Program-made: the position numbers and the translations under genes
Assembly (NCBI RefSeq): GCF_016433145.1
Contig: NC_058130.1
Coordinates: 378,118,292 to 378,182,291 of the forward strand
Direction: 5' to 3'
Origin: Gracilinanus agilis
Lineage: Eukaryota
Length of the DNA stretch: 64,000 nt
Shown: positions 41,401-51,526 of the stretch, one piece after another
Layout: every line of letters begins with the position of its first letter
How positions within the stretch are numbered: the stretch's first letter is position 1
The notes under the pieces: model-generated
What the model was told of the DNA's origin: nothing
Database searches by the model: none
Seen by the model: the letters and a program-made list of their open reading frames with translations, nothing else

Positions 41401-41991
41401 TTTAATCATGCCCTTTCTCCTTTCACTTTTTCAGTGTTTTGCTTTTAATCACTCCCCCCACTCTCTCTTATATTACTCCTTTCCCCAATACCCCTTTTCT
41501 TATTCCCCTTCTATAGGGTAAGATAAGATTCTATGCTACAATGAATCTGGCTGATCTTCCCTCTCTGAGCCAATTCCACTGAGAATGAGGTTTTAGTATT
41601 ACCTGTCACTACCCTCATTCTGCCTTCCAATGTAATAGTATCTCTGCCACCCACACACCTCATTAACAGCTCTTTATGTGATATAATTTACCCCATTTTA
41701 CTTCTCTCTTCCCATTTCTCTTGGTACAATCCTCTTTTTCACCCCTAGTTTTTTGTTTTTTACATATCATCCTAAAGAGTTTACTACCATATCCTCTGTC
41801 TATGTATACTTCTACTACTATGATAATTATAACAATTTTTAAGAGTTACAGATATCATCTTTCCATATAGGAATGTAAACAATTTGACCTTATTGGAGCT
41901 CTTAAATTTTTTCTCTTTCTTATTTACCTTTTTATGCTTCACTTGAATTTTGTATTTGAACATCAGATTTTCTATTTATGCCTTGATTTTT
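38420..41991 (-). mobile_element. L1, 3' portion (inter-ORF spacer, ORF2 endonuclease/RT with deletions, 3' UTR remnant); host of the ERV
   Basis: ORFs 40910-41167 (GNFIFVKGSVDNEEISVFNIYVPN), 40663-40893 (LDLIEVWR...EYTFFS...FSDHN), 39145-39372 ([29 protein letters not shown]). Confidence 0.92.
40353..40534 (-). mobile_element. Young SINE1_Mdo-type SINE nested in L1 ORF2
   Basis: 14-bp TSD ATACCATACATTTT at 40339-40352 and 40535-40548. Confidence 0.93.
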
Positions 41992-42481
41992 ATCAATAAT
42001 ATCATTAGCTTTAATTAGTTAAGGACTTCCTGTTCCCTTTCTCCCAACCATTATCCTGCTTCTCCTTCCCTAAGTCTATTAATAATAAATAATCTTAAAC
42101 TTACATCTGACTTGAGCTTCATCAAGAATCCTAGGGTCTCCAGTGAATCATATCCTGGGATAATTTGATGGAAGAGGAGTATTACATCTTGCAGAAACAG
42201 TGATCAATCTGCAGGCAATCTCAAGCATTATCCAAAGGCACAGGGCTTCAGTTGAGAATAAATAACTGTACAATTCTAACAACAGATTTCTTGCTTAGCT
42301 GGTAGCCCTGTGATACTGTTATCATCTAGAGTTTGGGATTAGCAGATTCAACATATTCAGACAACATCTACTGCAGTGGGTGATCCTTTTGGGTTCACTA
42401 TCATATCTTAAGTGTCTCACATAGGATTCAATACCCATAATTAACCCTGCTCCAGATTCACATTACAACCCTGTCATAACA
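41990..42481 (+). mobile_element. Truncated LTR (last ~490 bp), inverted relative to the ERV body
   Basis: Is the reverse complement of 50652-51141 (roughly 92-94% by eye); ends exactly at the LTR terminal ...ATAACA. Confidence 0.92.
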
Positions 42482-43823
42482 ACCTGAAAACATCAAGATT
42501 ATCATTTTTCTAAGTTGAACTCTACACTATGCTATACTAAGTCTCTTACCTCACTATCTACAATTCCCCCCAAAATAATAAAATTCTTAACAATGCCATT
42601 TCCTAAGCTCTCTATTCTTCCTATGCTAATGGTAAGGAGTAGGAAAGTTTTAACTGGGAAAGAATTTGGGTTTGAATACATATGGTGAACAGAATTTGAA
42701 CATGCTTATACAGTCAACAATGCAAGTTTGTAACACAAAATATAGTAACCTTTAAACTTTGTAACTTTTCCTTAACTGGCTCTATAACTATGCATAAATA
42801 CAAATAAACTATGTTAAGAAGACTACTGTCAATACATAACTGCAATTAAATATCTACATTAACACAACAGTTTTCTAACAATCTTAAATTCCTATGCTAT
42901 CTATACTATTATTAGTCCTTTTCCATACATTAGTAAATTTCTATCCTAAGTTAGAGTATTAATCCATTAGTAACATAACTACCTAAGTTCATAATATTTC
43001 TCATGACTAAACCTTATTAGCATATGTACAAGCCTATTTAATTAAACTTATAACCATAATTTTCTGTCCCTATGCTACCTTCCTATAAAAATCCCTGATT
43101 ATTCTGTCCCTAGGATTAGTAGAACTTATTATGGGTTAGTTTCAAATATAATACATATATACAAGGTTTTATGTGAAGTTTTAACAAAGAGAGTAAATCT
43201 AGCACTATTAACCAGATCAAGGAACACATTTTCTCCTTTGCCGTGGTTAAAGTACCTTTTTACTCTAACTATATATAACATATATACAAATATGTACATG
43301 TGAAGTAATTTAAGTGTTTATGTGTTGGACATATGACCTATCATGTCTTGTATTGTTTCATACTCACCTCTTAATTCTCCTGCCAATCAGCCATGGACTG
43401 TTGCATGCATTCTACAGTATGGATGCAATGACTTTATGACATGATTGTTATATGAGTATGTTAACCTTCTACAATTCAAATTTAATCTTCCACAGTTGGT
43501 CATGATATTGTTCTACTTCTGTGGTGATGTCATCCAAGTCACACAGATGTTCACAGTTCAGTTCTCTTTGTGTAGTCTGCATTGCCCTTTGCGATGTCCC
43601 ATGACATCCAGGTGTCTTCAAGCCTTCATCTGTACTGCTTTCACTATTTTGACTGGTGTCTAATTTGACTGAAGAGCTTGTCACCTTCGTTTATCTGGAA
43701 CTGTCATTTGTGTGATTGTGTTGAATTGTGTTTAAAAAAAATTGTGTGTTGCCACAAAGTTTTTTTTTTTTTGAAAAGTTGTCATAAATACGGCTTTATT
43801 ATTTCACTTGCTTCTTTAATCAT

Positions 43824-45110
43824 TTACTCATCGGTATCACTACTTTGGTCTAATGCAATTTGATCTTTTGACTGCTGTTCTTCTATGGCTGGGTCTTGTT
43901 GCTGAGGCAATTCTTTGGATGACTTGACATGAATGACATGGCACCATGGGTCTCTGTTTTTTACTTTGACTGCTGTAGGGGGTATCAAAATAATTTTGTA
44001 AGGTCCATGCCACTTGGGTTCCATGATTGATTTTCTATTAAAATTTCTGACATACACTGTGTCTCCTGATTTATAATTATGCAAGCTAAAATCAAATGGA
44101 ACTCTCTGCTGGATTAAGCCTAATCTGTGTAACTCATCTAGCCTTTCTTTCAACAGCTTGATATATTCATATGGTTTGTATTCCACTCCCAGATGTATTA
44201 AATAATCTGTCTCTTGAGGTGCCATGCCATGCCAGGGCAGTTGACCATATAGTAACTCAAAAGGTGATAAGTGAGGAATACTATTTAGTTGACTCCTGAT
44301 ATGAAACAATGCCATTAGTAAAAGATCTGGCCATTTTAGGTGTGTTTTAGCACAGAGTTTTCCAATCAGATTTTTGAGCTGTTTGTTCATTTTTTCAATC
44401 TGGCCCTATGACTGAAGATGATAGATTGCATATATATGTCTTTTTTATCCCTAAAACTGCATAAATGCTCTTTAAAATGGCATTAGCAAAGTGACTTCCC
44501 GAATCTAACAAAATAATTGCAGGGATTGAGAATCTTGGTATAATTTCTCTCAGTAGGATCTTGACTACAAAAGCTGCATTATTACATCTGGCCAGGAACA
44601 CTTCTGACCATTTGGTTAATTTGTCCACAATCACTAAGGCATATCTGTACCCTTGGCATCTTGGCATGGTGATGTAATCAATTTGCTAGTTGTTTCCCTC
44701 CAAGGCTTTTGACTTTGGTAATGCCTTAGTTGAATTGCATGCAAATCTTGCACCTCTGACACACTCTCATAGCTGTTGTAGTTATTCTTCTGGCTATCCA
44801 GTGCTTTTTAATGGAATCCACTAGGGCTAAAGTCCCATAATTACCTTTCTCATGCAAAGTATTACATAACATGTAGAACAATGATTTTGGCAAAAATGGT
44901 TTATCAAAAGCTGATATCCAAACTCAATTCACTAGATTTGTTCCAAATGTTCTTTCTAGTACTTCACTGTGGAGAATATGCATTTTGTAATTGAGTTTCA
45001 TCCACTAAAGATAAGTTCAGTACTTAAAGTGGTCCAAATCTAGCTCCAAATTTTACAGTGATGTCAGCCCTATGGTTGCCTAACTGCACTGTTCCTAACA
45101 ATCTTTGATA
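43824..45110 (-). pseudogene. pol: ERV integrase (decayed)
   Basis: HW...CQRCKIC zinc-binding remnant, YALVIVDKLTKW-EVF, IIPRF-IP-I--DSGSHF, MNKQLK, GPY/F domain (PKWHGPYKIIL-P-TAVKV...WCHVIHVK). Confidence 0.92.
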
Positions 45111-50596: not shown

Positions 50597-50629
50597 TTTT
50601 ATTTTTCTGCTTTGTCATTACTAAGTTCA

Positions 50630-50651
50630 ATTCCTTTTGCCTCGCAAAAAC
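50630..50651 (-). promoter_or_regulatory. Degenerate primer-binding-site-like sequence
   Basis: Directly after the LTR end: GTTTTTGCGAGGCAAAAGGAATTGAAC, with a TTGAAC TpsiC-loop complement; tRNA species not assignable. Confidence 0.4.
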
Positions 50652-51526
50652 TGTTATTACAAGGTTGTAATGTGGTTCTGGAGCAAGGTTAATTATGGGT
50701 ATTGAATCCTATGTGAGGCACTTAAGATATGATAGTGAACCCAAAAGGATCACCCACTGCAGTAGATATTGTCTGAATATGTTGAATCTGCTAATCCCAA
50801 ACACCAGATGGTAACAGTATCATGGGGCTACCAGCTAAGGAAGAAATCTGCTGTTATAATTGTACAGTTATTTATTCTCAACTGAAGCCCTGTGCCTTTG
50901 GATAACACTTGAGATTGATTGCAGATTGATCACTGTTTCTGCAAGATGTAATATTCCTCTTCCCTTAAATTATCCCAGGATATGTTCTACTAGAGCCCTA
51001 GGACTCTTGATGAAGCTAAAGTCAGATGTAAGTTTAAGATTATTTATTACTAATAGACTTAGGGAAGGAGGAGCAGGATAATGGTTGGGAGAAAGGGAAC
51101 AGGAAGTCCTTAACTAATTAAAGCTAATTATATTATTGATAATCTTTGAAAATACTGTTGATCAGGTTTGATAGATAATAGCCTGATTGTGCCAGACAGA
51201 CCCAAACTAAATCAAGGTTACTCTGCTGAATGAGATGTTGTTCTTCTTCTTGGTAGTGAAATTCAGGAATAGAGATTGATGAAGTAGATTTGTAGTTGGT
51301 TGTTGGTTCATGGTTGAATAAAGCTCACCTGAGGCCTACCCAAACCACCCTTCAACCCACTATCTCATTTCTGAGATCAAGTGGCTTCAAATTCCTGGCT
51401 TTTATACCTGAACCTAACTGCCCTTGGCTTCTGCCAAGCTCCTTCCAGGTTTGGTTCTTTCCGCATTCTAAGCAGGTAATTGTCCATCATCCTGACTTCA
51501 ACATGGCTGTCAAATATATTATTACA
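50652..51526 (-). mobile_element. ERV 5' LTR (875 bp)
   Basis: TGTAATAA...TAATAACA; TATAAAA at 51400-51406; AATAAA at ~51045 and ~50873; adjacent to PBS-like site and gag. Confidence 0.9.

Follow-up and report, generated by a model that had tools for sequence, protein, structure and literature searches.

An endogenous provirus with inverted LTRs and a ~190-bp L1 target duplication in Gracilinanus agilis, a probable fossil of one-ended integration

Results

The locus described here is from Gracilinanus agilis (GCF_016433145.1, contig NC_058130.1, positions 378,118,292–378,182,291 of the forward strand). The window is this entire stretch of 64,000 nt; it contains no N, and all positions given below are window positions. 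A provirus, which is a dead element without present function, is located here inside another repeat that we take, judged by its ORF anatomy, to be an L1. The 5' part of this host L1 (5' UTR and most of ORF1) was read from the sequence at 51718–53290 (- strand, 5' end approximate), upstream of a duplicated target, and shows a 75% match to a second L1 piece within the window, at 43–706. The 3' part (spacer and ORF2) covers 38560–41799 (-, far end approximate), is collinear with the 5' part and carries a SINE at about 40343–40537. The L1 strand is unchanged on either side of the provirus. A contig comparison was carried out as one run over positions 41500–50651. There, joints in other L1 copies bridge 41799/41800 (for instance 41754 to 41831), and beyond 41978 the sequence of other L1 copies, from 154 contigs, partly resembles the window L1 after 51705. 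Therefore, both L1 halves fit a single element.

The 5' LTR is complete (50652–51526, -; 875 nt, TG...CA). It has its only canonical TATA at LTR position 121 and AATAAA at positions 479 and 651. Its U3 end is flush with the L1 at 51526/51527, a normal integrase-type joint at CA. The 5' LTR is followed by a degenerate sequence read as PBS-like (50625–50651, -), presumably a primer binding site by its likeness to a tRNA 3' end; ARAGORN found no tRNA gene in the whole window with which it could be compared.

Between 50234 and 43824 (-) lies the gag-pro-pol region of a class I-like ERV, now broken into stop-to-stop pieces 103–288 aa long, and no env ORF was seen in the provirus. In a profile search three of nine pieces scored above cut-off, for RVT_1, RT_RNaseH_2 and MLVIN_C, the latter with 60 bits (cut-off 29.2). 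The best PDB matches of the RT piece were to an MLV-type RT p80 (E 1e-16), ahead of foamy Pol (E 1e-8 to 1e-9), and the integrase piece matched a p46 C-terminal domain. By these matches, RT and integrase appear closest to gamma- and epsilonretroviruses. An MLV-type p80 RT, MLVIN_C and the gag-pro-pol order are shared with class I (gamma/epsilon-like) ERVs. No named ERV family was found, protein searches being without a match at E <= 0.001 among 247, 35 and 80 candidates. For the 288-aa piece, located upstream of the protease motif, all scores of an Atlas search were 0.80 or less. When metagenome and viral contigs were scanned for exact patterns, of the PPT joint and of an LTR motif, no match was obtained, and none of 13 candidate stretches in viral contigs and of 53 in prokaryote genomes was a related locus; blanks in viral, metagenome, prokaryote and protein searches say nothing about family size. 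Contig depth puts the LTR family roughly in the order of 100 copies.

Inside pro a high-copy insertion of ~434 nt is nested (47122–47555, -). Its TG...CA ends were read from the sequence, and it is flanked by a target duplication matching at three of four positions. With a contig depth of ~1e5, and skipped by joints of other copies, it is probably an unrelated solo LTR.

Close to the interior's 3' end a PPT-like G6-AAT occurs (42563–42571, -; G6 at 42571–42566). The interior spans 8.2 kb, and its sense strand has no other six-G run; counting this one, it has just two runs of five or more G. In a normal provirus the sequence past the PPT equals the 5' LTR start. Here it is instead a stretch of 81 nt (42482–42562, -) which also starts with TG but, as originally predicted for about 80 bp, is unlike the LTR start: 224 and 123 of 300 shuffles reached its alignment score on the two strands. 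To account for these 81 nt one further assumption is needed: they could be left over from an older LTR of the family, or two parental RNAs could have differed in their U3. Their bin depth (237272 depth-bases in total) is compatible with anything up to ~2900-fold, a high-copy LTR start included. That all 81 nt are homologous to the LTR was considered and rejected, since 46 and 105 of 300 shuffles got to the score.

The second LTR is a flipped and shortened piece at 41990–42481 (+), comprising LTR positions 385–875. According to blastn it matches 51142–50652, the last 491 nt of the LTR, with 93.5% identity over 492 columns and one gap. This agrees with the 92–94% estimated by eye in the original prediction, which had recognized the inverted copy and set its end at 51141 instead of 51142. 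A global alignment of the LTR pair shows 31 differences at 491 aligned sites (K2P 0.066). The match ends exactly at CA, with 18/20 identities in the final bin and 6/20 in the adjoining one. At this joint (42481/42482) the PBS-like sequence that adjoins the 5' LTR is absent, again as predicted. The name "U3-less" given to this piece follows by motif inference only, from the TATA at 121, AATAAA at 479 and 651 and the break at 385. Since the first 384 nt of the LTR (51143–51526) occur once in the window, there is no direct 3' LTR in it, which had been correctly noticed. Thus, where a normal provirus has two LTRs in direct orientation, the 5' LTR and the flipped piece are inverted relative to each other. 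The 23 nt past the CA (42482–42504 on the + strand) resemble LTR positions 359–389; therefore, the CA joint perhaps is not a clean CA-to-interior junction. A 10-nt match sits 13 nt inside this joint. At its other end the flipped piece shares with the L1 the predicted 2-nt TT microhomology, an overlap which lies within an L1 T-run and is near chance level.

Overlooked in the original prediction was a direct duplication of ~190 bp of L1 sequence. Its right copy (51527–51717, -; the last part of ORF1 and the start of the spacer) and its left copy (41800–41991, -; overlapping the flipped LTR by TT) are 93.2% identical (blastn), with sharp boundaries. The duplication begins exactly where the 5' LTR starts (8/20 identities before 41800, 19/20 after) and ends at the flipped LTR. 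It is thus bounded by the ends of the element, in the polarity of a target-site duplication, and measures ~190 bp instead of the 4–6 bp of a normal provirus. The left copy continues into L1 without an LTR, which is empty-site sequence. Three simple scenarios can be discarded. Against a 5'-truncated L1 inserted into the LTR speaks that the first 384 nt of the LTR are not found beyond the L1 in the window; an LTR tip inverted in place would not make an L1 duplication, nor would a deletion by itself.

Two of the three joints are exact att ends. Att ends exist as natural DNA ends during integration only. In normal proviruses the two CA joints are found on opposite strands. Here the + strand runs continuously and carries both CA-3' joints, together with one microhomology joint.

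The L1 duplication differs at 11 of 184 sites and the LTR pair at 31 of 491 (Fisher p = 1.0; 95% intervals 3.0–10.4% and 4.3–8.8%). Judged by these counts, both would be of the same age within error, at low power. In the contig comparison, both LTR copies depart from 97–98% of the family contig depth at two of five listed sites, and both L1 copies depart from 97% at one of two. At the remaining four of these seven sites the left copy alone departs, as later mutation predicts. These are seven rows among 40 listed, 1806 further rows exist, and the shared alleles could instead mark small subfamilies.

These data bear on the possibility, also raised in the original prediction, of a second insertion. 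In this view an independent element from this family, either a provirus or a solo LTR, would have integrated in reverse orientation 81 nt beyond the PPT; its other half would have been removed later, in a rearrangement that also gave rise to the duplicated L1 flank. Such an event would directly account for the CA-exact joint; furthermore, a nested LTR insertion has occurred in this provirus, and ~100 family copies, by the rough depth estimate, were there to supply another one. However, rare alleles are common to both LTR copies in two of the five rows, and the LTR pair is no more diverged than the L1 duplication. Its divergence of 6.3% compares with ~11–14% between the interior and three paralogous contigs among those listed. 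Neither the other half of such an LTR nor a second target duplication occurs in the window, and the L1 duplication asks for more than a plain deletion. This explanation is thus weakened, and we regard it as highly improbable.

Equal divergence would also be expected if one later rearrangement had made both duplications. A normal provirus might have been altered by a single replication-based event of template-switching repair, leading from a break near the 3' end into the LTR in reverse, then to the upstream L1 flank and from there back to the downstream flank, by way of either the empty homologue or the short duplicated target. This predicts the shared alleles as well, and the 23-nt echo of LTR positions 359–389 looks like a templated insertion. 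In the accessible portions of PMC5488345, later rearrangement is also raised for long HML-2 duplications. On the other hand, the switch must hit the CA exactly, without overlap on the PBS side, although an integrated LTR offers no free end there, and three switches are needed, not one. We therefore consider such a history unlikely.

None of the eight listed contig pieces (13907 more exist) spans the left joints at 41991 and 42481, a result that is neutral as evidence. It would fit an assembly artefact in this repeat-rich region. Five of the eight match the interior with no difference, one of them extending 65 nt beyond 50651; the contig run possibly stems from the source sample itself, which limits this support. 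Against an artefact speak the lack of N in the window, the base-exact joints at att ends and the single L1 strand on both sides. Even with its interior flipped between the arms, the element would have inverted LTRs, and neither pair can be one sequence assembled twice, because each differs by ~6%. An artefact appears hardly credible. The contigs also contain a joint from 43776 to 42161 (depth 27), which may be another locus with the 3' end of pol adjoining this LTR.

Discussion

One normal end, one flipped and shortened end and a host repeat of ~190 bases together make a botched one-ended insertion, patched by the host, the most likely origin. A normal CA end, loss of the 3' LTR, a long host duplication and extra inverted viral DNA, all expected for one-ended integration, are present. 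We conclude that a single one-ended, aberrant integration into an L1 has probably been preserved at this locus as a germ-line fossil. In a first step, legible in the joint itself, the U3 end was joined in integrase fashion, flush at CA, to the L1 at 51526/51527. Then the U5 end may have missed the host target, and its processed CA end would have become joined to viral DNA. Finally, host repair synthesis could have connected the LTR piece, at its position 385, with the target's intact strand ~190 bp away from the nick, using the 2-nt overlap. By this the target would have been duplicated and the rest of the 3' LTR lost.

For the U5 joint the most likely route would be integrase, acting either on the opposite strand at 42481/42482 or on the virus's own LTR near position 359; the latter variant would give a ~517-nt loop, followed by one round of copying, possibly by host polymerase. 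Taken absolutely, an integrase-made U5 joint comes close to an even chance without reaching it. The less likely route, copying by a host polymerase from the free processed end with no integrase at this joint, is possible but rather doubtful. The original prediction had the U5 end autointegrate into the opposite strand of the viral DNA. The CA-exact joint fits this idea, which gains plausibility because the ~190-bp duplication marks a one-ended integration; it is unproven, however, as a polymerase copying from a CA-terminated template yields the same joints. Our most specific proposal is tentative: the integration complex may have split its strand transfers, U3 going to the chromosome and U5 to the virus's own DNA, possibly its own LTR near 359, and repair may have saved this product, which normally is suicidal, so that it entered the germ line.

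The fault may also have arisen before integration, during reverse transcription or by capture of cDNA. Strong-stop DNA would then have been mis-primed or ligated near the 3' end, and the faulty DNA integrated by one end. An R-U5 strong-stop piece has its end at the U5 tip, co-packaged RNAs with different U3 could account for the 81 nt, and capture of retrotransposon cDNA at breaks has been published, as far as the accessible portions of that literature go. Yet the joint lacks the spacer bases found between CA and the PBS-like sequence. As there is a single canonical TATA, at LTR position 121, position 385 is no obvious R start, and the mispriming version requires two separate errors. This origin seems very unlikely to us.

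Returning to one-ended integration, if this reading is true the locus records uncoupled integration in a natural germ line, with no drugs or engineered ends involved, and autointegration is not invariably a dead end. Half-autointegrated proviruses would be recognizable because both CA-3' joints lie on the same strand, a U5-side piece of the LTR is inverted and the target duplication is long. This signature can be searched for genome-wide, from which a rate of one-ended integration could be obtained from fossils; finders and annotation relying on direct LTRs overlook elements of this form. Between the inverted arms, the 8.2-kb interior can be flipped. That inverted LTRs cannot collapse, as originally stated, is correct in so far as they invert and do not delete, but the direct repeats of ~190 bp may offer a route for removal of the whole element. 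Such a clean deletion would mimic an empty site and cause errors in presence/absence markers. For HML-2 at 6p25.2, removal through direct repeats is likewise raised in the accessible portions of PMC5488345. The weight of all this is limited because it is one dead locus without present function.

Several known systems can be compared. We take PMC5488345 to be Kahyo et al. 2017 and PMC4422153 to be Macfarlane and Badge. The closest parallel comes from aberrant integrations of HIV-1 and ASLV in cell culture, as far as described in the accessible portions of PMC5041404 (Varadarajan et al. 2016). They have one normal end, with the other LTR often truncated or deleted, aberrant ends joined to more viral DNA "in either orientation" with short homology at the joint, and host duplications of hundreds of bp; one tabulated case combines a normal end with a wholly deleted 3' LTR and a ~840-bp duplication (PMC5041404). 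Those cases involved drugs, integrase mutants or mutated ends, with none of 99 and none of 85 untreated proviruses aberrant in that account, whereas the locus described here is a natural germ-line fossil. Furthermore, the model proposed there is host-polymerase copying, and an inverted, CA-exact LTR piece is in no row of the supplementary table (PMC5041404).

Among endogenous proviruses, HERV-K(HML-2) elements are similar in having flanking duplications of 100–450 bp and in being 3'-truncated in some cases. In the accessible portions of PMC5488345 and PMC4422153 these duplications measure 250 bp at 7p21.2, 450 bp at 21q21.1, 206 bp at 4q32.1 and 111 bp at 6p25.2, where the 3' LTR is missing as well. 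The long ones are ascribed there to inefficient integration, as in aberrant RSV integrants (PMC4422153). HML-2 belongs to another ERV class in another host, and no inverted LTR piece is described in these portions. The HML-2 scan may have passed over such a form, because LTR pairs were assessed for the same orientation (PMC5488345, in its accessible part). In the inversion and deletion circles of autointegration, the CA end of an LTR is joined to DNA of the element itself, and a portion is inverted (PMC7197481, accessible portions). Such circles are dead ends that stay extrachromosomal, and both of their ends lie in viral DNA, whereas here the U3 end is in the chromosome. An endogenous case with an inverted CA-exact LTR piece was not found in the literature, a weak negative as most subscription papers were outside the search. 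Thus, one-ended integrations and long HML-2 duplications were already known, and what appears to be new, judged from this one sequence, is the inverted CA-exact LTR piece in an endogenous provirus.

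Inverted LTR and duplicated L1 target

The provirus, class I-like and in sense on the minus strand within a minus-strand L1, has a single complete LTR. This 5' LTR (51526–50652, minus strand), 875 nt long with TG...CA ends, precedes a degenerate PBS-like sequence. The att sequence is close to a palindrome, so that the first ten bases of the LTR (51517–51526, minus strand) and its last ten (50652–50661, minus strand) repeat each other both directly (9/10) and, imperfectly, in inverted orientation. In agreement with the original prediction, the plus-strand piece at 41990–42481 is the reverse complement of the LTR end: blastn matches it to 51142–50652 at 93.5% identity, and a global alignment yields 31 differences at 491 sites. 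It comprises LTR positions 385–875, counted from the U3 TG, and terminates exactly at the CA, as had been stated, where identities drop abruptly from 18/20 to 6/20 in the next bin. The first 384 nt of the LTR are found only once in the window, therefore the expectation that a directly oriented 3' LTR is lacking was borne out there.

A repeat scan revealed a feature that had been overlooked before, a direct repeat (41800–41991 and 51527–51717, 93.2%) of minus-strand L1; each copy covers the ORF1 end and the beginning of the spacer. On the right, the repeat begins with the base adjoining the 5' LTR. The left copy abuts the flipped LTR on one side and on the other continues into the remaining L1 without an LTR. 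This arrangement is that of a target-site duplication, except that its length is about 190 bp where 4–6 would be normal. Over its ungapped part (41800–41983) there are 11 differences in 184 sites, which equals the divergence between the two LTR copies (Fisher p = 1.0), with wide intervals. Since both pairs are diverged by about 6% and the joints are base-exact, a misassembly is unlikely. Equal ages would also be predicted if a normal provirus had been repaired with template switching at a later date, but such repair must strike the CA exactly without a free end there, which makes it rather unlikely.

Joints

Along the plus strand the locus has three joints. At 41990–41991 L1 passes into LTR position 385, with the TT overlap noticed earlier, situated in a T-run. 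At 42481/42482 the U5 CA abuts interior sequence in reverse, and the spacer bases that come after the CA of the 5' LTR are missing; the reported lack of a PBS-like continuation thus holds. At 51526/51527 the U3 CA is joined to L1. The two CA-3' joints share one strand, unlike those of a normal provirus, which are on opposite strands.

A PPT-like G6 is located 81 nt interior to the CA joint and, as had been noted, these 81 nt do not match the 5' LTR start in a sequence comparison. Under reverse transcription the two should be equal, yet they differ, and the mechanism proposed below gives no account of this. Either a relic of an older LTR was kept before the real PPT, or two RNAs with different U3 were involved, or the interior became chimeric later; contig depth is compatible with all three. 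A reverse-transcription error or capture of strong-stop DNA would account for the odd 81 nt but leaves the loss of the spacer bases unexplained, and we regard it as improbable.

The 23 nt beyond the U5 CA align to LTR 359–389, the stretch immediately before the other break, including an exact 10-mer. Such 10-mer sharing occurred in 0 of 3000 random window pairs. Under three scoring schemes, alignment scores this high arose in 20–42 of 20000 pairs when these were drawn from the AT-rich 3' region, and in 4–22 of 20000 when they were drawn from the whole interior. The match requires three small gaps in 31 nt, compared with one in 491 for the LTR pair. A relationship (p about 0.01–0.04) is only suggestive, because it was noticed post hoc among perhaps 10–20 possible window pairs.

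Allele sharing with other family copies

Contigs of one public sequencing run (stretch share 0.64) were placed on 41500–50651 at 84% likeness, 13503 in number; the run may be the source sample and is therefore not independent evidence. Among the 40 differences listed (a further 1806 exist), the flipped LTR accounts for five and the duplicated L1 for two. The LTR copies both depart from 97–98% of the family depth at 42047 and 42311, as do the two L1 copies from 97% at 41896; in the other four of these seven the difference is confined to the left copy. Moreover, 154 contigs of other L1 copies continue beyond 41978 into sequence partly like the L1 after 51705. Thus, judged from these contigs, both LTRs seem to belong to a single provirus and both L1 pieces to a single locus, although small subfamilies could also produce this pattern. 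An independently inserted second LTR with later rearrangement, in line with the earlier alternative of a second LTR, is weakened by the common alleles and appears very unlikely. Among the eight pieces listed (of which there are 13907 more) none spans the left joints; five are identical to the interior, from which three paralogous ones diverge by about 11–14%.

Interior and neighbouring elements

The gag-pro-pol of the interior is broken and of class I type. Three of nine ORF pieces pass the Pfam cut-offs, the closest solved structures are MLV-type RT and integrase, and protein searches found no named ERV family. Inside pro, an insertion of about 434 nt (47122–47555, minus strand) with TG...CA ends is flanked by a 3/4-matching duplication, reaches a contig depth of about 1e5 and is skipped by other family copies; it is probably a solo LTR from an unrelated, very abundant family. 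About 1.5 kb at about 47750–49250 (minus strand) holds long open frames of 288 and 125 aa, between what we take to be a gag zinc-knuckle-like motif and a protease motif; a Pfam search gave no match there, and an Atlas search with the 288-aa piece gave none scoring above 0.80. In most bins, contig depth is lower over gag (64–613) than over pol (about 450–1300). One contig of depth 27 links the pol end (43776) to the mid-LTR (42161) with 18 letters between and may represent another, deleted family locus.

Within L1 ORF2 lies a young SINE (40343–40537, minus strand), 97–98% like the copies at 711–897, 33955–34138 and 36069–36254; its target duplication, about 14 bp long, is clear. A didelphid marsupial host had been supposed earlier, and the SINEs of the window may be related to an opossum SINE, which they resemble. 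An LTR-like stretch seen by eye at about 54000–54800 has no blastn match to the provirus.

Proposed mechanism

When integration in cell culture is one-ended (PMC5041404), truncation of the other end is frequent. That end may carry further viral DNA, joined in one orientation or the other, and in most cases a host duplication hundreds of bp long lies beside it; the authors propose that a host polymerase copies nearby templates, followed by recombination. Four features of this type were found at our locus by direct test: a normal viral end, a truncated other end, additional viral DNA and a long host duplication. As for short homology at the aberrant joints, the 2-nt TT overlap at L1 is near chance, and the 10-nt match lies 13 nt inside the CA joint. 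Therefore we read it as the germ-line fossil of a single aberrant one-ended integration event, which we consider likely. That a split integration complex was thereby rescued into the germ line is a more tentative and somewhat doubtful proposal.

The CA-exact inner joint suggests that the U5 end is absent from the host target as it was already joined to viral DNA. To this extent the original proposal, autointegration of the U5 end into the opposite strand, finds support; its integration step is not singled out, since copying by polymerase only, from a processed end, would give identical joints. Opposite-strand autointegration at 42482 would give a lariat; synthesis by the host, starting at the nick, would proceed for about 190 nt and then switch into the LTR at 385. 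Alternatively, same-strand autointegration near LTR 359 would form a loop of about 517 nt, on which the shortened viral end could prime via the 10-nt match, copy one turn and exit to the host on meeting its own primer. Such an exit would explain why both breaks sit at 385–390.

Comparison with known systems

Endogenous proviruses flanked by long target duplications are already known. Out of 451 putative duplications, Kahyo et al. list eight HML-2 (HERV-K group) loci with 13–450 bp, including a 3'-truncated provirus whose duplication measures 111 bp (PMC5488345), and such loci have been connected to inefficient integration (PMC4422153). Therefore the class is not new. The combination of an inverted, CA-exact LTR piece with a long duplication was not found among the listed results of searches of the open-licence literature. 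According to PMC7197481, autointegration into the same or the opposite strand leads to deletion or inversion circles, respectively. In these circles both ends are in viral DNA, whereas at the locus described here the U3 CA is joined to L1.
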